Below, piece by piece: positions 5,097-45,460 of a DNA stretch of 64,000 nucleotides. The DNA is from Pyrinomonadaceae bacterium (lineage in GTDB: Bacteria; Acidobacteriota; Blastocatellia; Pyrinomonadales; Pyrinomonadaceae). The stretch lies in contig CAVXAC010000002.1 of NCBI GenBank assembly GCA_963759665.1, positions 482,995 to 546,994 of the forward strand, given 5' to 3'. The notes under the pieces were generated by a model. The model made no database searches. It had not been told where the DNA came from and was given only the letters and a program-made list of their open reading frames with translations. Every line of letters begins with the position of its first letter. Position 1 is the first letter of the stretch. The translations under genes were made by a program, and so were the position numbers.

Positions 5097-5684
5097 GTGG
5101 ATAACAACTCCAACGAACTCCTTCGCAGCTCTCTCCATGAGCATATCGACGCGATTACTCTCCTGCTTGAGAAAAAACTCGACGATATCGATCAAACCGG
5201 CCGCTTAATAATCCGGACCATACAGTCAGGAAATAAGGTTTTGCTGTGTGGGAATGGAGGTAGCGCTGCTGATTCTCAGCACATTGCCGCGGAACTCGTC
5301 GGCCGCTACGAGAAACATCGGCGCGCCTATCCGGCAATCGCGCTTAGTACAGATACTTCTGCTTTGACCGCGATCAGCAACGATTACGGCTATGAAGGTG
5401 TATTTGCCCGGCAAGTAGAAGCTTTGGCGGCTCCGGGTGACTTGTTGATCGCGATCAGCACCAGCGGCAAGTCTCCCAATGTTTTGAAAGCAGCCGAAAA
5501 GGCGCGTGGGATCGGTTGCAAGGTTATCGGGTTAACCGGCTGTTCGGGAGAGCCATTGGCATCGCATTGTGACCTTGCCCTGGTGGTCCCGGCAAACCGC
5601 ACCTCCAGGGTGCAGGAAGCGCATATCACAATCGCCCATCTTTGGTGCGAAATGATTGACGCACTGGAGGTTGAAATCGTTTAA
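5097..5684 (+). CDS. gmhA: SIS-domain D-sedoheptulose-7-phosphate isomerase (GmhA family)
   Basis: 195 aa with [26 protein letters not shown] and [13 protein letters not shown], typical of GmhA-type SIS proteins. GTG start, divergent from mutS. Confidence 0.8.
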
Positions 5685-5962
5685 ACCCCGGTCATTTGAA
5701 AAGGCTTGACAGAACCGTTCGGGGCCTTTAGGCTTCGGGCCTAATTCGATGTGCTCCAACTCGCCCAATCCATCGCCAGCCCAGATCTGACCCAAATTTA
5801 CAACTCTTGATAAGGGAAGTAAGGAGCTTGATGAAGCGTCTCTGGATTACGAAAAGTTTGTTATTGATCATTTGTTACTAGTTGCTCTTTAGAAACTGAA
5901 TGCGGCCCCGCAACGCAACCACGATCAGAAGTTCCCGCCGCAGTATCTTTCACTGAAAACAA

Positions 5963-6607
5963 ATGTTCCCCCAAAAAGCACAAATCGGCACCAAGGTAGA
6001 TACTGAAACCTACCCTTTAGGCGAGAAGAGTGAACGAGTATTGGATGGTCCGGCGTTAGCTGTAATCGCGCTGACCCATACTCCACTTGAGCAACGGGTC
6101 TACACCACGATGCTGATGGCGCTCGATCCCGCCAAACCTGAATCCGATCTCTTCACGGTCCGTCGCCTCATTGAACTGGCAGCCGATAAGCGGTTGAGCA
6201 CCATCAGGCGAGGACTCGAAGGTCTGGTGGCCAAGTTCAGCGTCGAGCGCGAAGCCAAACCTAACGGCAACGGCTCGCGCGAACACGGCGTCGCCTATCG
6301 TGTATTCACACCAGAAGAAGTCCTGGCGCGACGAACCGAACGCGGCATGACCTCCTACGCCAAAGAAATGGAAAGCCGGAGAAGTAATCTGAGCTTTGGG
6401 CGCGTCATTCAGAGAGTTGCCGAGAACAAGAATCTGAGCCGACGTGAAGCACAGGTAGCTCTGTGCTGCGTTGAAGGAATGACTAATGCCGAGATTGGTC
6501 TGCGGTTGATGGTGAGCGAACAAACTGTGAAGTTTCACTTGCGACACATCTTTATCAAGTTTGGTGTTAAGCGCCGCGCTGAATTGATCTCGCGGTTGCT
6601 GATGTAG
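5963..6607 (+). CDS. LuxR-family transcriptional regulator (C-terminal HTH)
   Basis: The C-terminal 60 aa match the LuxR/GerE HTH (LSRREAQVALCCVEGMTNAEIGLRLMVSEQTVKFHLRHIFIKFGV). The N-terminal domain is unassigned. Confidence 0.8.
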   Translation: MFPQKAQIGTKVDTETYPLGEKSERVLDGPALAVIALTHTPLEQRVYTTMLMALDPAKPESDLFTVRRLIELAADKRLSTIRRGLEGLVAKFSVEREAKPNGNGSREHGVAYRVFTPEEVLARRTERGMTSYAKEMESRRSNLSFGRVIQRVAENKNLSRREAQVALCCVEGMTNAEIGLRLMVSEQTVKFHLRHIFIKFGVKRRAELISRLLM

Positions 6608-6646
6608 TTTTTGAAAGTCCGAGCTCAGGGAAAACTCCCTGTGCAA

Positions 6647-6718
6647 CCTCAGTGTTCTCGGTGTCTCCGTGGTGGTCTTTTTTGACAATCCACCACCGAG
6701 GCACAGCGAACACAGAGG
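6647..6718. repeat. imperfect 29-bp inverted repeat (CCACCACNGAGNCACNGNGAACACNGAGG type) downstream of the LuxR gene
   Basis: CCTCAGTGTTCTCGGTGTCTCCGTGGTGG (6647-6675) pairs with CCACCACCGAGGCACAGCGAACACAGAGG (6690-6718), 5 mismatches. A further single arm sits at 40789-40817. Confidence 0.6.
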
Positions 6719-6851
6719 AGGCACAGAGACGAAGCCTGAATTGAAAACCTAACGCTGCCTTGCTTGAAAGGTTTCCCCTCGGGGTACCGTGTGATTCAAG
6801 AGTTCGCCGACAACGCGAGCTTGCGAAACATACCGGGGTGGAAGTGTATCT

Positions 6852-7145
6852 ATGGTTACTGCAAAGAAAACAAGCGCAAGCAAAGACAAGAAGAAAAAGA
6901 AAAAGAAGAAGACTGCTCTCGTCGTCTGCAGCGACCGGAAGGAGTTTTGGACGACGCAAACACAATTTTGGCAATGGGTGCGCGAGGGAATAGTGACGAA
7001 AACTGCGGACAACCCGTTGACAGGCTCGTTTAACCGCGAACACGAAGAATTACTGGTCCTCGTTAGCAATACCGTTTTGAACCTGGCTCATCCGAATCAT
7101 ATGCGCGAAGCGTTAATGTCGCGCCGGGCTGGGCTAAGAAAGTAA
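6852..7145 (+). CDS. hypothetical small basic protein with N-terminal poly-Lys tract
   Basis: 97-aa ORF directly upstream of wza on the same strand, with KDKKKKKKKK near the N-terminus. No family recognised, so coding status is uncertain. Confidence 0.35.
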   Translation: MVTAKKTSASKDKKKKKKKKTALVVCSDRKEFWTTQTQFWQWVREGIVTKTADNPLTGSFNREHEELLVLVSNTVLNLAHPNHMREALMSRRAGLRK

Positions 7146-7153
7146 ATGACATC

Positions 7154-8164
7154 ATGACAAGGAACACTCTTATTAATGGTTTTGTCGCTGTCGTTGTTGC
7201 CCTGACAATCGGGGCTTCAGCAAAGGCCCAGGAGAAACCAGAAAACCCCAGGAACACCACAGACACCGGCGCCAGTGAAGTAATACTTGCTGGCGATGAC
7301 GATACGCGTTATCGAATGGGACCTGGCGACGTGCTCGATATCAGGATCCTTAATCGGCCCAATCTATCGCGCGAAGCAGTTCGCATCGAGGGCAATGGGA
7401 CGATCCGGATGCCGCTCATCGACGACGAGATCATGGCGGCTTGTAAAACGGAAGGCGAACTGGCGAAAGAGATTGCCGGGAAGTACATGAAGTTTTACCG
7501 CAATCCTCAAGTTGACGTCTTCGTTAAAGAGTACAAATCCAAGCAAGTCGCTGTGCTTGGAGCTGTGAACGAACAGAGCCGGTTTGAACTTCAGAGAAGG
7601 ATCCGGCTGCTCGAGTTGTTGACCTTCGCGCGCGGACCTTCACCGAAAGCGGGCCAGACTATCAATATCGTGCACACGCGACCCGCGCTTACTTGCGGCA
7701 AACGGTCCGAGAACCCCGACGAAGTAGCCAAAGTGTTCAGCAGTTACAAGTTGAGCGACACCATGAAGGGGGAACCGTCAGCCAACCCGTGGATTGAAGC
7801 AGGCGACATAATCACCCTACCGGAGGCTCCGCAGGCATACGTGGTGGGGAACGTTGGCTCGCCTGTGACCATTCCCCTTCGCGAGCCGGTCACGATCTCG
7901 CGCGCGATTGCGATGGCTGGTGGTTTCAAGCAGGACAGCACCAAAGACAAAGTCAGGATCCTTCGGCAGGAACCCGGCACGTCGACTAGCAAAGAGATCA
8001 TCGTTGACTTGCAGGCCATTCAGAGGAAGCAGGCGGAAGACATAGCCCTGATGCCAAATGACATAGTTGACGTGCCTCTTTCAGGGACCAAGAGCTTTTT
8101 GCGCACCTTGATGGGATCGGTAGTTCCTTCAGTTGCCAGTCTGCCAGTTCGCGCAGTGCCATAA
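7154..8164 (+). CDS. wza: polysaccharide export outer-membrane protein (OPX, Wza-like)
   Basis: 336 aa with an N-terminal signal peptide, the Poly_export motif YRMGPGDVLDIRI and an SLBB-like C-terminal region (GDIITLPE, NDIVDVP). Confidence 0.88.
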   Translation: MTRNTLINGFVAVVVALTIGASAKAQEKPENPRNTTDTGASEVILAGDDDTRYRMGPGDVLDIRILNRPNLSREAVRIEGNGTIRMPLIDDEIMAACKTEGELAKEIAGKYMKFYRNPQVDVFVKEYKSKQVAVLGAVNEQSRFELQRRIRLLELLTFARGPSPKAGQTINIVHTRPALTCGKRSENPDEVAKVFSSYKLSDTMKGEPSANPWIEAGDIITLPEAPQAYVVGNVGSPVTIPLREPVTISRAIAMAGGFKQDSTKDKVRILRQEPGTSTSKEIIVDLQAIQRKQAEDIALMPNDIVDVPLSGTKSFLRTLMGSVVPSVASLPVRAVP

Positions 8165-8167
8165 ACG

Positions 8168-8223
8168 ATTGCTGATTGCTGAATGCCCGACATTCGAAAT
8201 CCGAAGTTCGAATTTCGAAATCT
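8168..8223. repeat. period-7 tandem array between wza and wzc
   Basis: GATTGCT GATTGCT GAATGCC CGACATT CGAAATC CGAAGTT CGAATTT CGAAATC. The units contain TTCGAA palindromes. Confidence 0.8.
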
Positions 8224-8236
8224 GTGAGGTGAGATT

Positions 8237-10723
8237 ATGAAACCATCAGATGAATTGATGAAACGACCGGCTGATCCCGCAGCCCTCGATCGTCCAAACG
8301 AATACACCTGGTCGCCGGCCGGCTATAACTACGGTGTTGATCCAAACGCCGAAACAGAAGTCCACCTCCTCGATTATTGGAGAGCTGTTCGCAAGCGACT
8401 GTGGCTCGTTTTGGGTGTGGTTGCGCTCATTACGGCGCTCACCGTGCTCTACGTGGCGCGTAAGCCTGACATTTATCAAGCCAGCTCTCGAGTCCAGATT
8501 GACCTGGAAAACAATGCCGCGCTAATTGGCAAGACTCCCTACCTGTTTGGTCCGAGCAACGATCCTGTCTACTTCAACACGCAGTTACAGATTCTTGAAA
8601 GTCCGGGACTCATGCGGCGCGTAGTGAGGTCGCTCGATCTCGAGCACAATCCCGACTTCTTCAAGGGAAACTCAACCCAGAAACGGACTACCTGGCAGAC
8701 CGTCAAGGGGATGTTTGGACTAAAGGTGAATGATGCTCCCGCTCCTTCCGCAAGACCCAAAGATGAACTTCCCTTGCGCACCGTGGTCGCTGAACAAACC
8801 GCTAAAGAAGATCTGGTAGAAGCCAAACGGGTGAGCCCATTTGTGGCTTCAATACTGGGCGGGCTGCGCATCGATCCGGTAAAGGAGTCGCGTGGTGCGT
8901 ATAAGGAAACGCGTCTCATCGACATCAGCTACACGCACGGCGATCCCGATGTAGCCGCCAAAGTGGTGAACGCGATTGCGGAGACCTATGTAGCAAACAA
9001 CGTCGAGAAAAGGAGTGACACAAACATCAGTACGGCTGATTTTCTGCAAAAGAGAATTGCCGAATTGCAGGAAAATATCCGCACAGACGAAGAGCGTCTG
9101 CTTAACTACGCCAGAAACAACAAGATCATTTCTCTTGACGCCGGGCAAAACACGGTAGTCGAGAGGCTGACTGCTCTTAACAAGCAGTTGCTGGACGCTG
9201 AGAATGCTCGCATCGAGGCCGAATCCAGATTTAATGCCGCCCGAACTGGAAATGCTGCAAACGCGTTGGCCGATGCCGATGCGAAACAGGCTAGCGAATC
9301 AGAAGGCAAGCTGGCGGAGTTGCGCCAGAAGCGCGTGTTGCTATTGGTAGACGCAACCGAAGAGGCGCCGGAAGTGAAAGAGGTTAATCAGCAGATCGCC
9401 GAGCTCGAGCGTCAGGCGGCTGAGACCCGCAAGAACAAGAGCACCAACATTCTGCAAAACCTGGAGACCGCCTATCGCCAGACACTCGGCCGCGAACAGG
9501 CTTTGCGTCGAGCGTTTGAGCAGTCGCGCAGTGAAACGGTAACGCAGAACGAAGCAGCTATTAACTACCGCATCATCCAACAGGAAATTGAGACCAACAA
9601 AACCTTGCTCGATAGCTTGCTTTCTCGCTCCAAAGAGAACGATGTGCTGACAGCAAACAAGCCGAATAACGTTTCAGTGGTTGACTACGCAATTCCTCCA
9701 ACTGGACCAGTTGGTCCAAACCGCACCAGGACGGTCTTCATGGCGATGTTCCTGGCGCTTGGTTTAGGCGTGGGGTTGGCTTTGTTTCTTGAGTACCTCG
9801 ATGACACAGTGCGGTCAAGCGAAGAAGTCGAACGCGTGCTTCACCTCGCCGCCCTCGCGGTCATCCCTTCAGCCAGCGGCTCGATGGGCCGTCGCTTGCG
9901 ATCCGCTCCCGGTGCACTGCAAAAGCGTAACGGAAACGGAAACGGCAACGGCATCGGCCACGGGAGTCTCAATCCCGAGCTGCTGATGAATGTAGACAGC
10001 CACTCGCCGCTGGCGGAGTCATACCGTCAGTTGCGCACCTCGGTGTTGCTTTCAACTGCCGGACGAGCGCCGAAATCACTCTTAGTTACTTCGAGTCTTC
10101 CGGGAGAAGGGAAGACCACGACCGCAGTGAACACTGCAATCAGCCTGGCCCAGACGGGCGCCAGCGTCGTCATCATCGACGCGGACATGCGCCGGCCGCG
10201 TCTACGCTCGATTTTCGGATTGTCTGAACGGGCTGGTTTAAGCTCAGTACTCTCGAGCGAAGTTTCTCCTCAGGACATGCTTTCGATGATCGCGAAGGAC
10301 GCATCCACCGGCTTGCACGTTTTGACCTCCGGACCTATCCCACCAAACCCTGCAGAATTGATTGGCTCTGATCAAATGCGCCGGCTAATCGCGACGCTGC
10401 AAGGTGAATTCACACATGTTGTGATCGATTCGCCGCCGATTACGTCATTCACAGACGGCGTGCTGATTGCGACCATGGTTGATGGCGTGTTGCTGGTGGT
10501 CCATGGCGGAAAGAGTTCGCGAAAAGTGGTTAGGCGTTCGCGACAGTTGCTGATGGACGTGGGCGCCAAGATCTTCGGCGTCGTACTCAACAAGGTCAAT
10601 CTCCAGTCCCACGATTACTACTACTACAACAAAGGCTACTACGCCGCCCGTGGTTACAAGACCGACGTCGATGAGGAAGAGACGACCGAGCAGGCGGCTG
10701 CCCCTGGAGTCCTGAATCTGTGA
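8237..10723 (+). CDS. wzc: polysaccharide co-polymerase / BY-tyrosine kinase (Wzc/GumC-like PCP-2a)
   Basis: 828 aa. Wzz-type N-terminus with a TM segment and a long coiled-coil periplasmic region. Kinase domain has Walker A PGEGKTTTA, A' VIIDADMRRP and B VVIDSPP. C-terminal Tyr cluster HDYYYYNKGYYAARGY. Confidence 0.93.
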   Translation: MKPSDELMKRPADPAALDRPNEYTWSPAGYNYGVDPNAETEVHLLDYWRAVRKRLWLVLGVVALITALTVLYVARKPDIYQASSRVQIDLENNAALIGKTPYLFGPSNDPVYFNTQLQILESPGLMRRVVRSLDLEHNPDFFKGNSTQKRTTWQTVKGMFGLKVNDAPAPSARPKDELPLRTVVAEQTAKEDLVEAKRVSPFVASILGGLRIDPVKESRGAYKETRLIDISYTHGDPDVAAKVVNAIAETYVANNVEKRSDTNISTADFLQKRIAELQENIRTDEERLLNYARNNKIISLDAGQNTVVERLTALNKQLLDAENARIEAESRFNAARTGNAANALADADAKQASESEGKLAELRQKRVLLLVDATEEAPEVKEVNQQIAELERQAAETRKNKSTNILQNLETAYRQTLGREQALRRAFEQSRSETVTQNEAAINYRIIQQEIETNKTLLDSLLSRSKENDVLTANKPNNVSVVDYAIPPTGPVGPNRTRTVFMAMFLALGLGVGLALFLEYLDDTVRSSEEVERVLHLAALAVIPSASGSMGRRLRSAPGALQKRNGNGNGNGIGHGSLNPELLMNVDSHSPLAESYRQLRTSVLLSTAGRAPKSLLVTSSLPGEGKTTTAVNTAISLAQTGASVVIIDADMRRPRLRSIFGLSERAGLSSVLSSEVSPQDMLSMIAKDASTGLHVLTSGPIPPNPAELIGSDQMRRLIATLQGEFTHVVIDSPPITSFTDGVLIATMVDGVLLVVHGGKSSRKVVRRSRQLLMDVGAKIFGVVLNKVNLQSHDYYYYNKGYYAARGYKTDVDEEETTEQAAAPGVLNL

Positions 10724-10737
10724 ACTGGCGCGGAGCG

Positions 10738-10988
10738 CCGCAAAGGGCGAAGGGCGAAGCATCGCTGGTTCTACTGAACGCGGACATGCGGCCACATTTT
10801 CGATTTGAAGACTTGGAGATATGGCACCTTGCCAGGGGACTCGCAGTCAAGCTTCACCAGTAGAACAGGCGAGATCGATCCGTTGTTGGTTGACTGCGAT
10901 ATGTTGAGTCGCAAGATTACAAACTTTTCAAGGAGTCTCGGCCCAGGGAAATAGCGCAGCCCTTTGCTCTTAGCCCTTCGCCCTTTGC
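10738..10988. mobile_element. IVS-like hairpin cassette with AAGGGCG-repeat arms carrying an internally deleted four-helix-bundle gene
   Basis: Left arm CAAAGGGCGAAGGGCGAAGC (10741-10760) is complementary to right arm GCCCTTTGCTCTTAGCCCTTCGCCCTTTGC (10959-10988). The interior is homologous to both ends of the 13476-13838 gene. Confidence 0.55.
10786..10954 (+). pseudogene. four-helix-bundle protein (23S rRNA IVS protein family) remnant, internal deletion plus frame change
   Basis: MRPHFRFEDLEIWHLARGLAVKLHQ-stop aligns with the N-terminus of the intact paralogue. GEIDPLLVDCDMLSRKITNFSRSL (another frame) aligns with its C-terminus. The central part is missing. Confidence 0.8.
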
Positions 10989-10994
10989 TCGAAC

Positions 10995-11999
10995 ATGAAA
11001 AAGGCTCTAATCACCGGCATCACTGGCCAGGACGGTTCTTACCTGGCTGAGTTGCTTCTTAACAAAGGCTACGAAGTGCACGGCATTATCCGGCGCGCTT
11101 CAACTTTCAATACCGGTCGCATAGATCATCTCTACGCAGACCCACACATAAACGGTGTGCACCTGTTCCTTCATTATGGGGACATCGCTGATTCGACCAA
11201 TCTCATAAAGCTGATTTATCGCATTCAACCCGACGAGGTTTATCACCTGGCGGCACAGAGCCATGTGCGCGTTAGCTTTGATATTCCGGAGTACACCGGC
11301 GATGTCACCGCGCTCAGTACCATCCGAATCCTCGAAGCGATTCGCGAAACGGGTGTCAACTCACGATTTTATCAGGCCAGTAGCTCCGAAATGTTCGGCA
11401 AGGTCCATGAGGTTCCTCAAAGAGAGACCACGCCGTTTTACCCGCGCTCGCCGTACGGCGCAGCCAAAGTCTACGCGTACTGGTCCACCGTCAATTATCG
11501 CGAGAGCTATGGGCTCTTCGCCTGCAACGGAATTCTGTTTAATCATGAAAGCCCGCGACGGGGCGAGACGTTTGTTACACGCAAAGTGACGCGCGCTGCC
11601 GCACGCATCAAGGCCGGACTCCAGGATAAGCTCTATCTTGGCAACCTCGAAGCCAAGCGAGATTGGGGCTATGCGAAGGAATACGTTGAGGCTATGTGGC
11701 TCATGCTGCAACAGGACCAGCCTGACGACTATGTGATTGCGACGGGTGAAACACATTCTGTCCAGGAGTTTGTTGAAGCAACATTTTCCGCTCTCGATCT
11801 TGATTGGGAAAAATACGTCGAGATCGATCCAAAGTATTACCGGCCGGCCGAGGTTGATCTGCTGGTGGGCGATGCCAGCAAGGCCAAGCGCCTACTGAAT
11901 TGGGAGCCAACCACCACCTTCAAAGGCCTGGTGGATCTGATGGTTGACGCCGACATGGCCGAAGTTGCGACCCGTGAACTCCAGCCGCAGCGTGTTTGA
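10995..11999 (+). CDS. gmd: GDP-mannose 4,6-dehydratase
   Basis: 334 aa with [37 protein letters not shown] and [15 protein letters not shown], all hallmark Gmd motifs. Confidence 0.95.
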
Positions 12000-12000
12000 C

Positions 12001-12436
12001 TGTCCGACATGCTCGAATGTCCGACATGCTTCAGCTTGTCGCCAACAATTAAGATTTCAAGCTACGATTTCAGAAAAACCACTGTTGAGTGTCACGTCCC
12101 TCACGACAAGCTGAAGCATGTCGAACGGCTTTGCACAAAAAGTCGCGGTTGGTTGGGTTAGCATGTACATTCACAAAGTATGGCCCAGGTGTGGTTACGC
12201 GAAGCGATCTCATTAACACCGCGGCTTTAGCCCGGTGTTCACAGGGCATGGCAAGTTTTCCTAACCGTTTTAACGGTTTACAGTCGCCCGCTAAAAAACC
12301 GTTGAAACGGTTACCCTCCTTTTGCAGGCCGCGTGATCACCGGGCTGAAGCCACGGTGTTAATGAGATCGCTTCGCGTCAACCTGGATCGGAGTTTTTGT
12401 CCAAGGCTATGTCGAACATTAAGCATGTCGAACATT
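12001..12436. repeat. nested palindromic element in the gmd-fcl gap
   Basis: Outer arms: 2 x TGTCCGACATGCT (12001-12030) vs 2 x ATGTCGAACA (12409-12436). A 23-bp stem pairs 12018-12041 with 12104-12126. A near-perfect 39-bp inverted repeat pairs 12199-12237 with 12338-12376 and encloses two small palindromes (AACCGTTTTAACGGTT, AACCGTTGAAACGGTT). Confidence 0.75.
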
Positions 12437-12445
12437 TGATCACCA

Positions 12446-13438
12446 ATGCCTGAGTCAACTTTCCCTTACCAGAAAATAGTGGTCACCGGCGGCGCAGGCT
12501 TCCTCGGTCAGCGCGTAGTCGCGAAACTTAAAACGTATCAGGACGTCGAAGTCTTTGTTCCACGCAGCGCAGACTACAACCTCGTCGAAATGGCCGACGT
12601 AAAAAGGCTGTACGCGGACACCAGGCCCGACTTGGTCATCCACCTCGCTGCGGTAGTCGGCGGCATCGGCGCCAACCAGAAAAACCCCGCGAAATTCTTT
12701 TACGAAAACCTGATGATGGGCACGCAGTTAATTGAACAGGCCCGTTTGAATGGCGTGCGAAAATTTGTCGCGGCGGGCACTGTTTGCGCTTATCCAAAGT
12801 TCACCCCGGTGCCGTTCAAGGAAGACGACCTCTGGAACGGCTATCCTGAAGAGACAAATGCGCCCTATGGCCTGGCGAAAAAGATGATGCTGGTCCAGGC
12901 GCAAAGCTATCGCGAACAATACGGCTACAACGCCGTCTTCCTGCTGCCCGCAAATCTCTATGGGCCAAACGACAATTTTGATTTGGAAAGCTCTCACGTG
13001 ATCCCGGCGCTGATTCGCAAGTGCGTGGAAGCGCGTCGTAACGACGCCGAGTTCATCGAAGTGTGGGGAACCGGAAACGCCTCGCGTGAATTTCTTTACG
13101 TGGACGACTGCGCCGACGCGTTTGTGCGTGCCGCCGCAGATTACGACGAATCCGAGCCCGTCAACATCGGAGTTGGCAGCGAGATCACTATCCGCGACCT
13201 CGTAAATTTGATCACAAGGCTCACTGGTTTTGAAGGCGAGATCAGATGGCAAACCGACAAGCCAGACGGCCAACCACGCCGCTCCCTCGACGTCAGTCGC
13301 GCATACGAAAAGTTTGGCTTCAGAGCGCAGACCACGTTCGAAGAAGGACTGCGTAAGACGATCGAGTGGTATGAAGCGCAAAGCGCCAAGAGCCAAGGGC
13401 AAAGAGCTAAGGGCGAACAAGCAAGGGCAACGGGCTAA
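12446..13438 (+). CDS. fcl: GDP-L-fucose synthase (GDP-4-keto-6-deoxymannose 3,5-epimerase/4-reductase)
   Basis: 330 aa with [28 protein letters not shown] and HVIPALIRK, directly after gmd. The last ~17 codons ([17 protein letters not shown]) are encoded by the repeat arm of the next element. Confidence 0.9.
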
Positions 13439-13854
13439 GGGCAAAGCAAAAATTACTACCGCGAGATAGCAAAAAATGCGACCTCACTTTCGATTTGAAG
13501 ACTTGGAAATATGGCAACTTGCCAGGGTGATGGCGGTAAAGCTACACAAGCTCGCCGACGATTTGGAGAAGAAGCGACTCTATCGTTATGCCGAGCAGTT
13601 AAGAGCAGCCGGATTGTCGCTGACAAATAATATAGCGGAGGGATCAGGGAGTACTCATTCGCGAGAGTTTCAGCAGTTTCTTAACATCGCGCGGCGATCC
13701 CTGTTTGAAGATGCGTCAATGCTGATGGTTTTTGAAAGTCTGGGTCTTTTCAAAGCAGGTGAGATCGATCCCCTTCTGATCGACTGTGACATGCTGAGTC
13801 GCAAGATTACGAACTTCTCGCGGACCCTTAGCTCTTAGCGCTTCGCCCTTAGCC
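13389..13854. mobile_element. IVS-like hairpin cassette with period-7 (GGCNAAG) arms carrying an intact four-helix-bundle gene
   Basis: Left arm is 8 heptamers (AGCCAAG GGCAAAG AGCTAAG GGCGAAC AAGCAAG GGCAACG GGCTAAG GGCAAAG, 13389-13447). Complementary right arm is CCTTAGC TCTTAGC GCTTCGC CCTTAGC (13825-13854). Confidence 0.6.
13476..13838 (+). CDS. four-helix-bundle protein (23S rRNA intervening-sequence protein family, PF05635/TIGR02436-like)
   Basis: 120 aa with FEDLEIWQLA, LTNNIAEGSGS and FLNIARRSLFE, characteristic of this family. Confidence 0.85.
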   Translation: MRPHFRFEDLEIWQLARVMAVKLHKLADDLEKKRLYRYAEQLRAAGLSLTNNIAEGSGSTHSREFQQFLNIARRSLFEDASMLMVFESLGLFKAGEIDPLLIDCDMLSRKITNFSRTLSS

Positions 13855-13861
13855 GACTCTA

Positions 13862-14704
13862 ATGACGGAAACATTCGACCTACAGATTGAAGCCGGTCAC
13901 ACGGAGAAGCACTACTGGGCCGATCTGTGGCGCTACCGTGAACTGTTCTACATCCTGGCCTGGCGCGATGTGGCGGTGCGTTACAAGCAGACGGTTGCCG
14001 GTGCTGCCTGGGCGCTTCTTCAGCCACTGCTCAGCATGCTGATCATGACGGTCATCTTCGGCAAGATCGCCGGCCTGCCGTCTGAAGGAAACGCGCCCTA
14101 CGCGATCATGGTTTTCGCAGCCATGCTGCCGTGGCAGTTCTTTGCGAACGCACTGTCGTCGTCGAGTCAGAGTGTAGTTAGCAACGCGCAACTCATTTCA
14201 AAGATCTATTTTCCGCGCCTGATCATCCCCACCAGTTCGGTAGTCGTTTCCCTAATCGACTTTGCGATTGCTTTTTCGATCCTGGCCGCATTGATGGTCT
14301 GGTATCAGTTCATGCCCAGTTGGCGCCTGGTAACCCTGCCGTTGTTCGTGTTGCTGGCGATCATCGCCGCCTTAGGTCCGGGTCTGATCATCACGGCGTT
14401 GACGGTTCGCTACCGCGACTTTCGCATCGTGATTCCGTTTGTGGTCCAGTTTGGTTTGTATGTGAGCCCGGTGGCCTATAGCACAGCGGTGGTGCGTGGG
14501 AAGTTGGGCGACACTCTGTTCCTGCTCTACTCGCTGAATCCGATGGTGGGCGTGATCGATGGATTCCGTTGGGCCATCCTCGGCGGCGCCAGCCAACTCG
14601 ATCCGCGCGGTTTCACTCTTTCTGTCGTGCTGAGTCTGATTCTCCTTTTTATCGGCATCTGGTACTTCCGCAAAACCGAACGCGTCTTCGCGGATGTGAT
14701 CTGA
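13862..14704 (+). CDS. wzm: ABC-2 type polysaccharide exporter permease (Wzm/TagG/KpsM-like)
   Basis: 280 aa with six predicted TM segments. N-terminal YRELFYILAWRDVAVRYKQT and KIYFPRLIIP are typical of ABC-2 permeases. Confidence 0.9.
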   Translation: MTETFDLQIEAGHTEKHYWADLWRYRELFYILAWRDVAVRYKQTVAGAAWALLQPLLSMLIMTVIFGKIAGLPSEGNAPYAIMVFAAMLPWQFFANALSSSSQSVVSNAQLISKIYFPRLIIPTSSVVVSLIDFAIAFSILAALMVWYQFMPSWRLVTLPLFVLLAIIAALGPGLIITALTVRYRDFRIVIPFVVQFGLYVSPVAYSTAVVRGKLGDTLFLLYSLNPMVGVIDGFRWAILGGASQLDPRGFTLSVVLSLILLFIGIWYFRKTERVFADVI

Positions 14705-14707
14705 GAA

Positions 14708-14896
14708 CAGAAGTCAGAAGTCAGAAGGCAGAAGTCAGAAGTCAGAAGTCAGAAATCGACGAGCGAATGACATCAATGGTTGTGCAGATAATTAGCCCGG
14801 TTAATGCTTGCGGGTTGGGAAGAACGAATTCTGCCTTCTGACTTCTGACTTCTGACTTCTGACTTCTGACTTCTGACTTCTGACTCCTGACTCCTG
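14708..14896. repeat. empty giant hairpin: 7 x GAAGTCA vs ~9 x TTCTGAC around a ~70-nt loop
   Basis: Tandem heptamers at 14708-14757 are reverse-complementary to tandem heptamers at 14829-14896. A T6 run follows, then the wzt ATG at 14907. Confidence 0.85.
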
Positions 14897-14906
14897 TTTT
14901 TTCTTC

Positions 14907-16245
14907 ATGTCCGTAGTAATCAGCGTCGAGAACCTCGGCAAGAAATACACCATCGGTCGCAACGGCGCCGGCACGGACGGACTGCGTCACGCTATCCATG
15001 ATTTCTTCGCCTCACCGTTTCGTCGCCTTGGTCAGCCGGCACCTGACACCCGAAACCTGACACCGGATCTGACTTCTGACCTCCGACCTCTGACCTCTGG
15101 TTCCGAAGACTTCTGGGCCCTCAAAGACGTCTCCTTCGAAGTGAAGCAAGGCGAAGTCGTCGGCATCATCGGCCGCAACGGCGCAGGGAAGTCAACGCTG
15201 CTGAAGATCCTGAGCCGCATCACCGAGCCGACCACCGGTCGACTACGCATCCGCGGCCGCGTCGCCAGTCTGCTTGAGGTAGGCACCGGCTTTCATCCCG
15301 AGCTAACCGGCCGCGAAAACATCTTTCTCAACGGCGCCATCCTCGGCATGAGTCGCGCCGAGATCAAACGCAAGTTCGACGAGATCGTCGCCTTCGCCGA
15401 AGTCGAACAATTCCTGGACACGCCCGTTAAGCGTTACTCCATCGGCATGTACGTCCGCCTCGCCTTCGCCGTCGCCGCCCACCTGGAACCGGAGATATTG
15501 ATCGTCGACGAAGTGCTGGCGGTCGGCGACGCTCAGTTTCAGAGAAGTGCCTGGGCAAGATGAACGAAGTGCCCGACAGCGGGCGGACGGTGCTCTTTGT
15601 CAGCCACAGATGAGCGCGGTCGAGGAACTGTGTGCGCGAGCGATCCTCCTGAACCACGGCTCCATTGAACGCTCCGGCGCGACTCATGATGTGGTGGCCC
15701 ATTACCTCACCTCGGCGCTCGCTAAATCGGGCGCGCAGATTGGTGGAGAGGCGGAGCGCGAGGGCACCGGAAATGCGCGCATTACCAAGCTCGAGTTGCT
15801 TGCCGCCGAAACCGATTCGCCGATCGGTACGCTGACTTTTGGGCAGTCCTTTCGCCTCCGCCTTCACTATCGCGCTTCGAAGCGCCTGTCTGACCCGCGT
15901 TTCGGATTTGCCTTGCAGTCGGACAAGGGTGAGCGCGTGTTCCAGACCGAAACAACAGAAATTAACTATCGGATACCGGCCATTGAAGGTGACGGCTGGT
16001 TCGACTGTCTCGTGAAGTCGCCGAATATTCTGCCGGGCCTCTTCTATCTCGAAGCCTGGATCATCGAGCAGGTGAACGTTGCTTTCGCCGACCACTTGTT
16101 TAGAGCGGCGCGGATTGAGATTGACGTCGACCCCGTTCTGCAACATCAATTGACCTATCTTACATATCCCGGGCGGGGCCGTGTCTTTATGGACTGTCAG
16201 TGGTCGCACGCCGAACAAACTAACGAAGTGTATGCTGCGAGATAA
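14907..16245 (+). pseudogene. wzt: ABC polysaccharide exporter ATPase (Wzt/TagH-like) with C-terminal glycan-binding domain, two frameshifts
   Basis: Walker [13 protein letters not shown], signature [11 protein letters not shown], Walker [13 protein letters not shown]. The frame is lost at ~15543 and ~15607. The corrected reading is QFQ(K)[18 protein letters not shown](Q)MSAVEEL. The C-terminal 200 aa look like a Wzt_C jelly-roll. Confidence 0.8.
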
Positions 16246-17197
16246 AACTATTTTCATGACCGGCGGCGCCGGGTTCATCGGCTCGACTCTGATCGGTCGT
16301 TTGATAGAACAAAACCGCGTAGTCGTATTCGACAACCTAAGCCGCAACGCCCTCTCCGGTCTTCCATATGCTTCACACCCTAACCTGAGAATGGTGGTCG
16401 GCGATGTTACCGACGCAGACGCGCTGCAGTCAGCGATCAGTGAGGCCGATCCGCATGTGGTGGTCCACATGGCGGCCATCGCCGGCATTGACACGGTAAT
16501 AAAGAGCCCGACCACCACCATGCGTGTGAACCTGATGGGAACGCTGAATGCGCTGGAGTCAGCACGCCAGGTGAAGCGGTTGGAGCGGTTCGTCGATTTC
16601 TCGACTAGCGAAGTCTTCGGCTCAAACGCGTTTCGCGCAGAGGAGAGTGGACTAGCTTCTATCGGCGCCGTGGGTGAAGCCCGCTGGATTTATGCGGTCA
16701 GTAAATTGACCGGCGAACACATGGCCCACGCCTATCATCGCGAGTTTGGCCTGCCTTCAGTGACCCTGCGCCCGTTTAATGTCTATGGCCCCGGTCAGGT
16801 CGGCGAAGGGGCGATTCACAGTTTTGTCGTGAAGGCTTTGAAGAATGAAGAGATCCAGATTCACGGTGACGGCACTCAGATTCGTGCCTGGTGTTACGTC
16901 GATGACATGGTGGACGGGGTGTTGCTGGCGATGGAACACCCTCGCGCGATCGGAGAATCATTGAACATTGGGAATGCACGAGCGGTGGTAACTATTTACG
17001 GTTTGGCCAACACAATTGTGCGAGTGCTCGGATCGAAATCAGCTATTCGATTTATTCCGAAAGATTATGTCGACATCGAGCTGCGGGTCCCCAACACTGA
17101 TAAGGCTAGGGATCTAATTGGTTTCGAGGCAAAGCTCGATTTGGAAGAAGGGATCAAGCGAACGGGTGAGTTCTACGCGAAGACAGCTTCGCTCTAG
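16232..17197 (+). CDS. NAD-dependent epimerase/dehydratase (SDR family)
   Basis: [12 protein letters not shown] Rossmann motif and YAVSKLTGE catalytic YxxxK. The ATG at 16232 overlaps the wzt stop. Confidence 0.85.
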
Positions 17198-17204
17198 ACT
17201 AACC

Positions 17205-17724
17205 ATGAGACATTTCTCAACTCACGGAAGTGGCGAGGTCAACCGTGAGCATTTTCGTAAGCTTGGCGAGAACGTGATCTTTGAGGCTGGCGTGCTTGTT
17301 TTTCACGCTGACCATATCGAAGTGGGCTCCAATGTTTACGTGGGCCATTATTCGATCCTAAAGGGATACTACAAAGGTCAGATGGTCATAGGCGACGACG
17401 TGTGGATCGGTCAACAGGTGTTTCTTCATAGTGCCGGCGGACTCTTTATAGGCGACCGGGTCGGCCTTGGTCCAGGGGTCAAGATCATTACTTCCTATCA
17501 CCGTGAAGAGGGTAGGCAAAAGCCAATTCTGGACAGCGCTCTCGAATTCGCAACCGTGACTGTTGGCGCAGATTGTGACCTCGGCGCGGGTGCGGTCATC
17601 CTTCCTGGCGTGACGATTGGGAAAGGGGTCCAGATCGGAGCTGGTGCTGTAGTTACCGATGATGCCGGACTACATGGTAGCGGCTGGTGTCCCTGCTAAA
17701 GTAATTCGCGAGCGAGCTCAATGA
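17205..17724 (+). pseudogene. left-handed beta-helix (hexapeptide) acetyltransferase, 3' frameshift
   Basis: Hexapeptide repeats (IGDDVWIGQQV, IGDRVGLGPGV, VGADCDLGAGAVI, IGKGVQIGAGAVV). The conserved end PDYMVAAGVPAKVIRERAQ-stop is in the +1 frame from ~17660, and its TGA overlaps the next ATG. Confidence 0.75.
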
Positions 17725-18957
17725 GCACCACTACCACTTTGAAAATACCTTTAGCAAGGCCGTGGTTTGACGAGGCTGATGAGCAATCAGTGCTCGAAAC
17801 ATTGCGAAGTGGCTGGGTGGGTCCAGGTCCGAAGGTGGCGGCCTTCGAACGTAGCTTTGCGGACTATGTTAGCTCCCCCTACGCTGCGACGGTTTCATCC
17901 GGCACTGCAGCGTTGCACCTAGCCGTGTTGGCCGCCGGGTTTGGACCTGGCGATGAGGTGCTCGTGCCAGCCTTCACGTGGGTCTCAACGCCCAACGCCG
18001 TAGAGTATGCCGGTGCGCGTCCAGTGTTTTGCGACATCGACCCAAAGACCTTCAACATTGACATGACAGATGCGGCTCGACGTGTCACGGGGCGCACAAA
18101 GGGAATTATTCCCGTTCATCTATTCGGGTTGGCTGCTGACATGTCTTCAGTCAAAGAATTGGCACTGAGACATAACCTTTTCGTAATCGAGGACGCCGCT
18201 TGTGGACTAGGTTCTTACTACGAGAATCACCACGTAGGCACACTAGGTGAAATTGGCTGTTTTAGCTTTCACCCTCGCAAGTCGATCACGACTGGTGAAG
18301 GGGGGATGCTGACGACTAATGACAAATCCCTGGACGCAAGGTTCCGCTCGCTGCGCGACATCGGTTCGGACCGCACCAACTATTCGCCGGAACGCGCTGC
18401 CCAACAGTTGCTCCCAGACTATGACGCGCTTGGTTTTAACTTTCGTCTCACGGATTTGCAGGCTGCGTTGGGTTTGACGCAGTTAGCGAAGTTCAACGAA
18501 ATCCTTGAACAGAGACTTGAATGTGCCCGTCGGTACGAGGAGTTAATCAATCACGCTGGCTTGACTGAATGGCTGCAACCTCCGCCATTACCTCGGAGTC
18601 GGGACACGCCTACCGGGCATATCTATGTAGGCTACTCCACCAGATGACGAGCTTTCGACGCTTGAATCCTGGCATGAACGCCGCAACCGCCTAATGAAAG
18701 ATCTGTTTGAAGTCGGCGTGGCGACACGGCCTGGCACTCACGCACCTCACATGCTCAGCTACTATCGGGAGAGATCTGGAATCCGGCCTGACGACTACCC
18801 GGAGTCGTGGCGGGCTGACTGGTTAACTCTGGCACTGCCACTCTATGCAGGTCTGACGCCAGATGAGCAGGAGTACGTCATCGATCGCGTGGGTGAGATC
18901 TGGCACCAATTAACCTCGGCCAAGGTGATTCAAACTTTGCCCTATCACGCTGAATAA
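17721..18957 (+). pseudogene. DegT/DnrJ/EryC1/StrS-family sugar aminotransferase, one frameshift
   Basis: N-terminal 300 aa are typical (SSGTAALHLA, IPVHLFG, FSFHPRKSITTGEGG). The C-terminal part (WHERRNRLMKDLFEVGVATRPGTHAPH) continues in another frame from ~18630. Confidence 0.8.
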
Positions 18958-19367
18958 ACCAGTACTCAACACAAGCGCTCGAAGGTCGAACATATTTCGA
19001 CGGGTTTATGATTTGTCCGAATCGTTACCATAAACATAGTGTTAACAAGAGACGATGATTGGTCATTGGCTGAGAGTTTTATGTTAACTCGTCCCGTTAG
19101 GCTGATCATGATTACAGCGTCCGTTGCCTTTAGCGCAGGCATCGGTTTCCTGTTCCGGTGGGTGCGTTGGCTCTTCCGGCGTCCGCCGCGAGTTACGCAC
19201 GGCATTTGCCCCCTGCATTCTTTAGAGATCAGTGTTGGCGGATCGAGCCGCAGAGTCCGGGCCAAGTATGTGGTTCTCTATGCTAAACAGTCGAACTCCT
19301 ACAACTTGACCACAGAGGGAGAGTTTGACGTAGTTTTTTCGCCTAGTGACAAGGCCACGGGAGCTTA

Positions 19368-20269
19368 TTGGTGGCGATGTCTTTGCCACATACTGATAAC
19401 AACGGATATCTGGAGACGACTTTCGACCCTTCCCCCCTCTCTCTCTCTCTCTTTTTTTCTCTGCCGAACCAACATGAACGAGCAAACAGTCTTATTCTAA
19501 GACTGATTAGGTTGGTGGGAATTCGAATTGTTGCCTTTCCATATGGAGCCGACGTCGCCTACGAGATAACCTCCGGGACCGTTTTGATTGGGTGGGCGAG
19601 ATGCAGCAAGATTATCCCGATTGGGATTTAGTTGAGTGGGGAACTGCAACGCGTGCGAGTGTTAGAGTTTTTAGCAAATACGCAGATCTCGTGAATGTAA
19701 TGGATGGAACCTTTCGGAGATTCCTTTCCCGGCAGGATATTTGTTGCAAGACAATTCCGGTTGATACGCAAGTCCTTGCTCCTCCAGTAGTCGCCGCAAC
19801 CCACGCCGTGCCCGTTCTTGTCCACGCTCCAAACCACCGTAATGTTAAGGGTACCGCCTTCCTGCTGGATTCACTCGAAGATTTGCGAAAAGTCGGAATA
19901 GCATTCGATTTGCGGATGGTTGAGAACACCGATCGGTTGGAGGCAATTGAAATTTACCGTCAGGCAGACATCATTGCAGATCAATTTGTAATAGGAGCCT
20001 TTGGGGTTTTTGCGCTCGAATGCCTGGCGCTGGGTAAGCCGGTTCTCACATATTTGGATCATGAGCATTTATGCAACCCGTTGTTCAATCTGCCTATCGT
20101 CAATTCGAACAGGTTTAATCTAACCAGAGTTTTGGCGGTTTTGCTAAAGGTTCCTGAGCTTCGTACCAGATTGGGGGCAGCGGGACGCGATGCGGCTGTC
20201 AAGTATCAATCCCTGGAAGCAATTGGGGAACTGAACAAAATAGATCTACGACCACCTCTGGTGGCGTAA
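19368..20269 (+). pseudogene. GT-B fold glycosyltransferase-like gene, frameshifted (5' limit uncertain)
   Basis: C-terminal half has VLVHAPNHRNVKGT, ADIIADQFVIGAFGVFALECLALGKPVL. The upstream segment LIRLVGIRIVAFPYGADV is in another frame (shift ~19575). Further upstream frames are unclear. Confidence 0.5.
19437..19475. repeat. polypyrimidine simple-sequence tract C6-(TC)n-T7
   Basis: CCCTTCCCCCCTCTCTCTCTCTCTCTTTTTTTCTCTGCC within the degraded 5' part of the glycosyltransferase-like region. Confidence 0.9.
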
Positions 20270-42068: not shown

Positions 42069-42936
42069 TCGGATCACCCCACTCATCCTGACTTACAACG
42101 AAGCGCCAAACATCGGCCGCGTGTTGGACCGACTTGGGTGGGCGCGTGACATCGTAGTAGTCGATAGCTTCAGTGATGACGACACGCTCGAGATCGTGTC
42201 GCGTTATTCCTCAGCACGCGTGATTCAAAGAGAGTTTGACGCCCACGCAAAACAGTGGGAGTTTGGGCTTAAGGAGACAGGAATAGCTTCTGAGTGGGTG
42301 TTAGCTCTGGATTCCGACTATGTATTGACGCCTGAATTTATAGAGGAACTAAGAGCGCTCAACCCGACGGCCGACGTTCAGGGCTACTGTGCGCACTTCA
42401 CCTATTGCATCAATGGCCGCAAGTTGAGAAGCGGAGTCTATCCGCCGGTGACAGTCCTTTATCGACGAGAGGCCGCTACGTACATTCAGGATGGACACAC
42501 CCATCGAGTTGTCGTGGACGGAAAGATTGAAAACCTCAGTGCCAAAATTCTGCACGATGACCGCAAGCCACTCAGTCACTGGTTTGCAGCCCAGTCGCGT
42601 TACACCGAACTGGAAGCGGAAAAGCTTCGGTCCGTAGAACCGGCGAGTTTGGGCTGGAAGGATCGGATGCGCCGGTGGCGGATAGTCGCGCCCCCGGCGA
42701 TGTTGCTTTATTGCCTGATCGTTCGTGGTGGCGTGTTCGACGGTTGGGCCGGATTTTATTACGCCTTTCAACGAGCCCTCGCCGAGCTGATGCTGTCGCT
42801 CCGGTTGTTCGAAAGCAAAGGGGTAAGAGCCGAGAGCGAAGAGGCAGAGCCCATCAGAGGGGAAGGGGGAAGGGGTAAAAGGGAAAGCGCAATCGTTGAA
42901 GCGAAGCCACGCGAGGGATCTGCGCTTGTTCCCTAG
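42061..42936 (+). CDS. family-2 glycosyltransferase
   Basis: ITPLILTYNEAPNIGRVL, VVVDSFSDDDT, ALDSDYVL. The last ~30 codons (EEAEPIRGEGGRGKRES...) are encoded by the repeat arm of the next hairpin. Confidence 0.82.
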   Translation: MLDRITPLILTYNEAPNIGRVLDRLGWARDIVVVDSFSDDDTLEIVSRYSSARVIQREFDAHAKQWEFGLKETGIASEWVLALDSDYVLTPEFIEELRALNPTADVQGYCAHFTYCINGRKLRSGVYPPVTVLYRREAATYIQDGHTHRVVVDGKIENLSAKILHDDRKPLSHWFAAQSRYTELEAEKLRSVEPASLGWKDRMRRWRIVAPPAMLLYCLIVRGGVFDGWAGFYYAFQRALAELMLSLRLFESKGVRAESEEAEPIRGEGGRGKRESAIVEAKPREGSALVP

Positions 42937-43014
42937 CTTTCCTTTTACCCATACTTGCTTCGCGTCTTTTAACCCCGTTTCGCTTGACCCTTTCCCCTTC
43001 GCCCTTCGCCCTTA
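42857..43014. repeat. empty hairpin with period-7 GGGGAAG / CGCCCTT arms
   Basis: GAGGGGA AGGGGGA AGGGGTA AAAGGGA AAGC (42857-42888) is complementary to GCTTTCCTTTTACCC (42936-42950) and CCCTTTC CCCTTCG CCCTTCG CCCTTA (42988-43014). Confidence 0.75.
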
Positions 43015-45056: not shown

Positions 45057-45459
45057 TTTCGAGTTTCAAGTTCAAGTCTCAATTCAAGAACAAGCCGGAT
45101 ACAAGTTTTTGGAGAAGTTCACCCTGCAGCCGCTCAACCTTCCGCCTCCTTCAGGAGAATGCTATGGCTACGTTTAATAGGTTCGAAGAAATTGAATGCC
45201 GGCAAAGGCTCGAGAGCTGACTCGTGGGATTTATCACATTACAAATTATCCTGCTTTTGCTCGTGACTTTGGATTGAAGGATTAGATCCGCAGAGCAGCC
45301 GTGTCGGTGATGTCAAACATAGCGGAGGGCTATGATCGAAGTGGCACGGCGGAATTAATTCATTTCCTCGCTACTGCTCGGGACTCTGGATACAAGGGAA
45401 CGAAATTCAAGTCGGCGGCTTCGGATGTAACTTGAAACTTGAAACCTGGAACCTGGAAC
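45057..45459. mobile_element. IVS-like hairpin cassette with TTCAAG/CTTGAAA-repeat arms carrying a decayed four-helix-bundle gene
   Basis: Left arm GTTTCGAGTTTCAAGTTCAAGTCTCAATTCAAG (45057-45089). Right arm CTTGAAA CTTGAAA CCTGGAA CCTGGAA C (45431-45459). Confidence 0.55.
45164..45430 (+). pseudogene. four-helix-bundle protein (23S rRNA IVS protein family) pseudogene, frameshifted and 3' truncated
   Basis: MATFNRFEEIECRQ.., LTRGIYHITNYPAFARDFGLKD and IRRAAVSVMSNIAEGYDRSGTAELIHFLATA are readable only by switching frames. The last helix is missing. Confidence 0.75.
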
Positions 45460-45460
45460 T

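Follow-up and report, generated by a model that had tools for sequence, protein, structure and literature searches.

Why should a gene from the family named after the intervening sequences (IVSs) of 23S rRNA sit intact in the middle of a polysaccharide operon, held between two arrays of mutually complementary heptamers, and what might those arrays be doing there? The question is raised by a 64,000-nt stretch of DNA from a Pyrinomonadaceae bacterium (assembly GCA_963759665.1, contig CAVXAC010000002.1, positions 482,995 to 546,994; “the window” below means this whole stretch), where a small four-helix-bundle (4HB) gene and its two repeat arms fill the junction between fcl and wzm. We argue that this segment, 13374-13854, is probably an IVS-type cassette lying in an mRNA, one intact copy of a widespread cassette, and that its transcript is probably processed by ribonuclease III (RNase III).

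Everything at this junction reads along the + strand. The upstream host gene, fcl (GDP-L-fucose synthase, 12446-13438), and the downstream one, wzm (an ABC-2 permease, 13862-14704, directly 3′ of the cassette), were both identified with Pfam. Between them come a G-rich and purine-rich 5′ arm of 10-11 tandem heptamers of the form AAGNGCN (13374-13446); a leader that separates this arm from the 4HB start codon (13447-13475, taken from the flank listing, RNAduplex, and the minimum free energy (MFE) fold); the intact 4HB gene itself (13476-13838, 120 aa, with an ATG start and a TAG stop, from the list of open reading frames (ORFs) and profile matches); and a 3′ arm of four heptamers complementary to the 5′ arm (13825-13854). 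Both arms were delimited by Tandem Repeats Finder (TRF), inverted-repeat searches, and a register table, and TRF reports period-7 arrays of 10.4 copies at 13374-13446 and 4.3 copies at 13825-13854. Read in a strict 7-nt register from 13374, the 5′ array runs AAGCGCA, AAGCGCC, AAGAGCC, AAGGGCA, AAGAGCT, AAGGGCG, AACAAGC, AAGGGCA, ACGGGCT, AAGGGCA, AAGCAAA, and the 3′ array (13825-13852/54) runs CCCTTAG, CTCTTAG, CGCTTCG, CCCTTAG.

The arms intrude on coding sequence at both ends. The fcl stop codon (TAA, 13436-13438) lies inside the 5′ arm, which encodes the last 21 fcl codons. All 21 come after the WYE(A/S)Q motif with which the conserved part of Fcl homologues ends; what follows this motif in the homologues differs in length and is unrelated in sequence, and several of these tails, like that of the fcl in the window, are K/G/Q/A-rich. 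At the other end, the 4HB stop (TAG, 13836-13838), which a preliminary description of this DNA had already placed in the 3′ arm, falls in the second unit of that arm, and the arm ends 8 nt upstream of the wzm ATG at 13862; the cassette occupies the gap between two co-directional operon genes nearly exactly. The same description counted four heptamers downstream, which is right, and eight upstream, which are only the 3′ part of the 10-11-unit array; it began the feature at 13389, where the array in fact begins about 15 nt earlier, and it credited the 5′ arm with the C-terminal codons of fcl, correctly in kind, although its figure of about 17 applies only from that later start. As head-to-tail 7-nt units in intergenic DNA, the arrays belong with the short tandemly repeated repetitive (STRR)-like heptanucleotides, a class that is descriptive only.

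What of the gene? The ORF had been proposed to be an intact member of the IVS-protein/Avd family, and the searches bear this out: the protein matches PF05635, “23S rRNA-intervening sequence protein,” along its full extent (residues 8-112; E 3.5e-24, 85.5 bits, cut-off 33.8) and TIGR02436, “four helix bundle protein” (E 1.3e-23, 83.3 bits, cut-off 24), and it finds a solved pentameric Xanthomonas protein, 2GSC in the PDB, at E 5e-9. By these matches it is a member of PF05635/TIGR02436, in the superfamily that includes Avd. Relatives at 85-89% amino acid identity give a proportion of nonsynonymous differences (pN) of 0.08-0.10 with synonymous sites saturated, a saturation that makes the Nei–Gojobori (NG86) dN/dS not computable, so that we give raw pN and its synonymous counterpart, pS, instead. 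Because pN is this low while synonymous sites are saturated, the 4HB protein is under strong purifying selection.

Do the arms pair? The best ungapped arm pair in this copy covers 29 nt at 83% complementarity; together with further helices it could close the insert with a terminal stem of 20 bp or more, as in an IVS. The Smith–Waterman score between the arms is 33; of 400 dinucleotide-like shuffles one reached it, of 400 mononucleotide shuffles none did, and a reverse-not-complement control scored 13. The RNA MFE fold of 13360-13870 includes the long-range arm stem, which makes up a small share of the total energy. Within the leader, 13459-13466 (CCGCGAGA) can pair with 13816-13823 (TCTCGCGG) to give an innermost 8-bp helix, seen with RNAduplex and in the MFE fold; as part of a general design we rejected this inner helix, which is not conserved in relatives.

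The cassette has a great deal of company. Scanning one genome per GTDB species, we gathered 80 loci (labeled L below) with relatives of the query protein at 35-89% identity, from Acidobacteria, Verrucomicrobia, Desulfatiglandales, Lentisphaerae, Omnitrophota, Aerophobetes, Thiotrichales, and a large number of Bacteroidota, with cultured isolates among them. Arms were scored by aligning the 150 nt 5′ of a gene to the reverse complement of the 150 nt 3′ of it, with a Smith–Waterman threshold of at least 28. By this test, arms surround 77% of 77 4HB genes and 5% of 586 other ORFs in the same loci, and arms from the same locus reach a median score of 35 vs. 16 for arms taken from different loci (p = 9e-24). 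The G-rich arm is the 5′ arm in every scorable locus (59/59), and conversely, of the 102 such G-first pairs seen in the DNA that was sampled, 72 have a 4HB gene between their arms, the remainder being mostly short-loop hairpins. Tandem repeats in these loci have a period of 7 in 279 arrays, of 6 in 24, and of 8 in 61. The unit itself changes with lineage (GRGCRAA in Acidobacteria and Verrucomicrobia, GTTTAAA in Flavobacteriia; further units are GGGTTCC, GCATGGG, GAGCAGA, and GGTGACA), and in every case it is complementary across the gene. In the median layout, drawn from 51 loci, the host stop is followed after 4 nt by a 5′ arm of 4.4 units, a 35-nt leader, and the 4HB gene, then 6 nt, a 3′ arm of 4.6 units, 9 nt, and the next host start; the 3′ arm overlaps the 4HB stop in 17 of the 51. 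An independent sample, the cyanobacterial and Riemerella plasmids of cultured organisms, has arms around four of five 4HB copies, built on the units GGGTGTA (Calothrix), CAGGAGT (Nostoc punctiforme), GGTTTAA (Riemerella), and GGTGACA (Anabaena sp. 90). Across phyla, the arm–gene–arm architecture characterizes the gene family. The preliminary description had held that copies without inverted repeats would undo its proposal; both other copies in the window are armed, and so are most of the homologous and plasmid copies just counted.

These controls also settle the dullest of the explanations, namely that a slippage-prone genome rich in heptamer microsatellites happened to put two arrays on either side of an unrelated small gene. 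It is true that solo heptamer arrays occur elsewhere in the window, some within coding sequence (15068-15099, 43134-43197, 45734-45765), and that among the intergenic tandem repeats of prokaryotes heptamers are the most frequent kind (bioRxiv 10.1101/309039). The shuffle tests nevertheless reject coincidence, as do the excess of arms over control ORFs, the difference between same-locus and cross-locus arms, and the unbroken G-first polarity, and the layout recurs in at least five phyla and in the plasmids of isolates. Coincidence is refuted for practical purposes by the controls, and we regard it as so improbable that it hardly matters.

If the arms and the gene belong together, do they also evolve together? 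In nine orthologous flavobacterial sufB–4HB–sufC cassettes, the 45-nt segments that hold the arms are 73-78% identical, a range somewhat inflated by the alignment of repeats although the unit itself is clearly retained, vs. 34% for the four-fold sites of sufC (27% is expected at random). On this comparison the heptamer unit is conserved beyond neutral sites. Arm similarity between loci, moreover, rises with protein identity (Spearman 0.75 overall and 0.53 for cross-phylum pairs). Since arm similarity tracks the protein and the unit is conserved, arms and gene evolve as a unit, and what matters is the sequence of the arms as well as their complementarity.

What, then, is the cassette for? The 23S IVS of Coxiella burnetii offers the most instructive comparison. 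It lies in helix 45, is 428 nt long, and has a 28-bp terminal inverted-repeat stem with an S23p ORF in the loop; three tandem GACAGAT heptamers and a degenerate fourth precede the ATG, in a number that varies among strains; RNase III cuts at the first heptamer; and one strain has lost 176 bp of the ORF by deletion (PMC4990558). The preliminary description had likened the gene-in-a-stem layout to an rRNA IVS, and against this published account the likeness deepens: a loop ORF of the same protein family, read in the sense of the host transcript (in the window, the 4HB gene shares its strand with fcl and wzm); a terminal stem of ~28-30 bp; a 5′ arm of tandem heptamers, G-rich arm first (three to four copies of GACAGAT vs. 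10-11 units here); loss of the ORF by internal deletion in some lineages; and a size of about 430-480 nt. There are differences too. The host transcript in the window is a polysaccharide-operon mRNA, not 23S rRNA, and the arms overlap the coding ends of fcl and 4HB. An insertion in 23S rRNA would be expected in helix 9, 25, or 45, and the flanks here are fcl and wzm; Rfam finds no rRNA in the window at its gathering threshold, none at E ≤ 1 in 10600-15200, and none around 20 related loci. Nor does any Rfam RNA family match the arms or hairpins, at the gathering threshold across the window or at E ≤ 1 in 10600-15200. RNase III cleavage, finally, was demonstrated in Coxiella and is predicted for the window cassette. 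In the open-access literature we found no paper in which inverted heptamer arrays are tied to 4HB genes at large, and none on IVS-type cassettes within mRNAs. The pattern is general and apparently undescribed: an IVS-type element outside rRNA.

In the mechanism we favor, the cassette would lack its own promoter (in 10600-15200 the prediction gives no sigma-70-like one) and would be transcribed by read-through from the host operon. The arms would pair in the transcript to give a double-stranded RNA stem of about 30 bp, and RNase III would cut that stem, as has been demonstrated for the architecturally identical 23S IVSs of Coxiella and Leptospira. The cut would free the 4HB mRNA and part the cistron upstream from the one downstream, and an operon would thereby tolerate the insertion in the way that rRNA tolerates an IVS. 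The homologous Avd is a pentameric barrel known to bind stem-loops of RNA, in a system where a distal-sequence duplex flanks the template RNA (bioRxiv 10.1101/2023.10.23.563531), and by this homology the 4HB protein would probably bind its own repeat arms. The neighbors of the sampled genes are co-directional with them in 68 of 75 loci upstream and 61 of 74 downstream.

Several observations weigh against this account. The stem in the window copy is interrupted (the 83% over 29 nt given above), and the fold of the whole region (13360-13870) has a z-score of only -1.75. In a wobble test for a stem at the RNA level, the arm mismatches show no wobble excess (G:T 47 vs. A:C 42 and T:G 18 vs. C:A 16, or 65 vs. 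58 in total), a spectrum that neutral transitions would give, and selection for pairing in the sense RNA rather than in DNA is not indicated. Since the two strands of an inverted repeat read alike, the G-first polarity is a property of the element and not of gene orientation; by the same symmetry it is no pointer to RNA. The sampled loci are relatives of the query, at 35-89% identity, and not all of PF05635. The Coxiella ORF, moreover, is reported as apparently untranslated and decaying (PMC4990558), unlike the ORF in the window, which is intact and, as judged above, held by purifying selection.

Could the whole affair be played out in DNA? The arms might act as DNA hairpins or cruciforms, like the ends of MITEs (miniature inverted-repeat transposable elements) and of REPINs (paired repetitive extragenic palindromes) or like attC sites, with the 4HB protein as a DNA-binding helper and any RNA processing incidental; the cassette would copy itself to new sites or enter existing hairpins by gene conversion, and its complementarity would be kept up by quasipalindrome template switching. 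The symmetric mismatch spectrum fits such an element, and so do the histories of individual junctions. The preliminary description had suggested looking at related fcl–wzm junctions, and one of them proves to keep the hairpin without the gene. In this syntenic Pyrinomonadaceae locus (L082, fcl 80% identical; order wzc–4HB–gmd…fcl–wzm…wzt), fcl and wzm are separated by a G-first array of GCAAAGA, alignable in its first units with the array in the window, a loop of ~15 nt, and a TCTTTGC/TCTTAGC array. At wzc–gmd, L082 has an intact 4HB gene of another subfamily between GGGGACC/GGTCCCC arms, where the window has a truncated copy. A Flavobacterium locus (L051) has the same arms around a gene at sufB–sufC and around an 8-nt loop at sufC–sufD, a junction at which other genera do have a gene. 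The cassette, then, is present or absent at orthologous junctions and behaves as a unit of gain and loss.

The truncated copy at wzc–gmd, the second cassette of the window (10743-10985, + strand), has arms at 10743-10759 (AAGGGCG) and 10958-10985 (AGCCCTT) and a 4HB gene that has decayed through an internal deletion of ~205 nt (the equivalent of 13551-13755) and a premature stop. Its remnants, 10786-10860 and 10866-10934, are 83% and 80% identical in nucleotides to the intact copy. A recent duplication of the intact gene into wzc–gmd was considered and rejected on pS values of 0.54 and 0.82 and nucleotide identities of 76-83%; by this divergence, the truncated copy is an old paralogue. Given the L082 and L051 junctions, this 205-nt deletion, and the 176-bp ORF deletion in Coxiella, the simplest history is one in which a filled cassette suffers an internal deletion and becomes a gene-less hairpin.

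Identical arms with and without a gene, at neighboring junctions of L051 as well as at orthologous junctions elsewhere, are what arm-guided gene conversion or hairpin-stimulated deletion would give, and the DNA-level explanation can also point to arms that travel with the protein subfamily across phyla and to several arm types within one genome. It has little machinery to offer, with no transposase, integrase, or REP-associated tyrosine transposase (RAYT) associated with the cassettes and no target-site duplications in the junctions read. In about 90% of loci the gene points the same way as the host operon, which fits dependence on the host transcript and is something that a DNA hairpin does not need, and the sole member studied experimentally, the Coxiella IVS, is processed as RNA. 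A purely DNA-level element seems to us unlikely; a DNA-level role for the arms, in hairpin-guided copying or deletion, is a serious rival all the same, and the two roles may coexist. Comparison with known mobile elements points the same two ways. Imperfect intergenic inverted repeats and cassette-like behavior are shared with REPINs, MITEs, and attC sites, and the two gene-less hairpins in the window (14708-14896 and 42859-43013) look REPIN-like, whereas the arms here are tandem heptamer arrays with no unique palindrome, there is no RAYT or IntI nearby, and the cassettes are dispersed singly in operons and not stacked. An integron gene cassette is not supported either: the arms flank the ORF and do not lie only 3′ of it, they are built of GRGCRAA heptamers and not of GTTRRRY attC cores, and no integrase is found among the neighbors.

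Perhaps the hairpins belong to the host, as punctuation of its operons (mRNA stabilizers, partial terminators, or translational-coupling switches), with the 4HB gene a tolerated passenger in the loop. An array or a hairpin does stand at nearly every wza-wzc-gmd-fcl-wzm-wzt junction. One of them, a gene-less hairpin at wzm–wzt (14708-14896, + strand; CAGAAGT x6.7, a 75-nt loop, and TTCTGAC x9.7), has a stem of about 51-55 bp, a folding free energy of -104 kcal/mol, and a z-score of -10; it runs directly into UUUUUU just 5′ of the wzt ATG at 14907, a terminator-like layout at 14829-14906 between two ABC-transporter subunits. A mere passenger, on the other hand, would not account for the strong purifying selection on the 4HB protein, and 72 of 102 G-first pairs do enclose a 4HB gene. 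In favor of punctuation, the arm unit is kept across flavobacterial genera at the same suf junctions, where neutral sites are saturated, and the leaders of several flavobacterial loci (L050, L051, L053, L055, L062, L064, and L067) contain a second short complement of the 5′ arm (AACTTTAAAC), so that the 5′ arm could pair either locally or with the distant 3′ arm, a possible switch; yet related genomes have no hairpin at some of the junctions, or have a different cassette there. We hold host punctuation to be unlikely.

Might the gene instead be an orphaned Avd, left behind by a diversity-generating retroelement? The protein is a four-helix-bundle homologue by sequence and so falls in the superfamily that includes Avd, but no reverse transcriptase lies among the flanking ORFs, no template/variable repeat pair lies in 6000-20000, the flanks are heptamer arrays, and the gene stands alone within housekeeping or polysaccharide operons. 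The flanking ORFs (7154-18647) are all polysaccharide genes, matching Poly_export, Wzz/GNVR, GDP_Man_Dehyd, Epimerase, ABC2_membrane, ABC_tran, Wzt_C, Epimerase, and DegT, and a search of 6000-20000 for direct repeats of 40 nt or longer turned up just the two 4HB copies. The same gene also turns up elsewhere in suf, macB, and cas operons. No PADLOC or PHROGs profile matches the 4HB protein at E ≤ 0.01, and tblastn finds no match in 50,697 phage records, which speaks against a retroelement remnant and likewise leaves a defense gene or a phage gene unsupported. An orphaned Avd is, in our estimation, extremely improbable.

Tandem heptamers have, of course, been seen before, as the STRR sequences of cyanobacteria, the GGGAATC arrays of Xanthomonas with their 70-75 convergent pairs (PMC4692102), and the TAACTGA repeats of Beggiatoaceae (PMC4679880). 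Like the arms, these are intergenic tandem 7-mers of variable copy number, sometimes in convergent pairs capable of forming stem-loops. Those reports link no cargo gene to them, whereas here paired arrays bracket one gene family and the unit co-varies with it. This invites a bolder idea, which we offer as a long shot: 4HB proteins might be the agents behind bacterial heptamer repeats, each clade recognizing its own 7-nt unit and, like Avd, recruiting a polymerase or recombination activity to write, homogenize, or copy the arrays. The clade-specific units, their conservation beyond neutral sites, and the invariant G-first polarity make the idea compatible with what we see. If it were true, the cassettes would be the source of a large share of prokaryotic heptamers, intergenic and in-frame coding alike, and of the classical rRNA IVSs.

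The favored reading, an IVS-type cassette in an mRNA, has consequences of its own. The 4HB (“S23p”) genes in 23S IVSs have been a curiosity for 30 years, and their location in rRNA now looks like a special case of an arm–gene–arm cassette whose main home is the mRNA of ordinary operons across Acidobacteria, Verrucomicrobia, Bacteroidota, Cyanobacteria, and other groups. The cassettes link 4HB genes to the unexplained excess of 7-base repeats in bacterial genomes, and they provide a very large 4HB family of unknown function with a candidate ligand, its own repeat arms.

They also bear on what may be concluded from the company a gene keeps. The wzc, wzm, gmd, and fcl loci host 4HB cassettes in four phyla, and a polysaccharide-specific function was a candidate, which we rejected on finding other relatives in suf, macB, pfk, purE, and cas operons. 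The order sufB–4HB–sufC–4HB–sufD occurs in many flavobacterial genera; the other hosts include an ABC ATPase/permease pair, pfk, and purE; and on plasmid pANA02 of Anabaena sp. 90 (L089) a 4HB gene with GGTGACA/TGTCACC arms interrupts a type I-D cas operon (cas6–4HB–cas4–cas1). A “23S rRNA IVP” (intervening-sequence protein) has been reported as statistically associated with CRISPR adaptation modules (PMC10910872). That association may reflect insertion of cassettes into operons and not a shared function, and guilt by association should be read with caution here.

The window as a whole (64 kb) contains five G-first heptamer pairs, three of which enclose a 4HB gene or its remains. Besides those already described, there is a third cassette between asnB and a carbamoyltransferase gene (45055-45460, + strand; arms AGTTTCA… / AACTTGA…) with a 4HB pseudogene of a different subfamily at about 45164-45432, frameshifted, interrupted by an in-frame stop, and truncated, and a short gene-less heptamer hairpin between a GT2 gene and asnB (42859-43013, + strand; GGGGAAG / CCCTTCG, 120-nt loop). 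The coding arrays mentioned earlier lie in wzt, in asnB (which has another at 43560-43575), and in the carbamoyltransferase gene, respectively; they read in frame as short low-complexity insertions, for example in Wzt, and heptamer expansion in this genome is thus not confined to intergenic hairpins.

Some smaller observations on the family may be recorded. The query has over 3,000 protein matches, and none of the best 120 falls below 81% identity to it; many of the matches come from contigs of 0.5-3 kb, a size that would be expected if short-read assemblies break at the repeat arms. One G-first heptamer pair (L042:2812-3523) surrounds a small GIY-YIG-like ORF and no 4HB gene, and the hairpins may occasionally hold other cargo. 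In the wzc–gmd gap of a relative (L081:2030-2235), an inverted repeat without a 4HB gene has its pyrimidine-rich arm first (CATTTCT… / …AGAAATG, 110-nt loop), an exception to the G-first rule among gene-less hairpins.

The remaining observations concern the polysaccharide locus. At wzm–wzt, L082 has a GACGACC/GGTCGTC hairpin, a toxin-antitoxin-like ORF pair (65 aa and about 85 aa, by eye similar to RelE/ParE), and after these a TTCTGAC array (5440-6115), whose unit is common to the gene-less wzm–wzt hairpin of the window. At the wza–wzc junction of the window (8167-8221), heptamer arrays (GATTGCT, CGAAATY) stand unpaired, lacking a clear inverted partner, and four relatives (L004, L006, L029, and L041) have a 4HB cassette at the equivalent place. 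The gmd–fcl intergenic region (11992-12443) is filled by a different, MITE-like element of nested inverted repeats that are not heptamer-based: an outer pair (12010-12031 / 12421-12442), 54-nt arms at 89% (12197-12250 / 12325-12378), and 23-nt arms at 96% (12019-12041 / 12104-12126). Finally, wzt is split in the window into an ABC_tran ORF (14907-15563) and a Wzt_C ORF (15547-16245), with two 1-nt frameshifts suggested near 15541 and 15606; in L082, Wzt is a single ORF of 447 aa, and the wzt of the window is either a pseudogene or an error of assembly in a metagenome-assembled genome.

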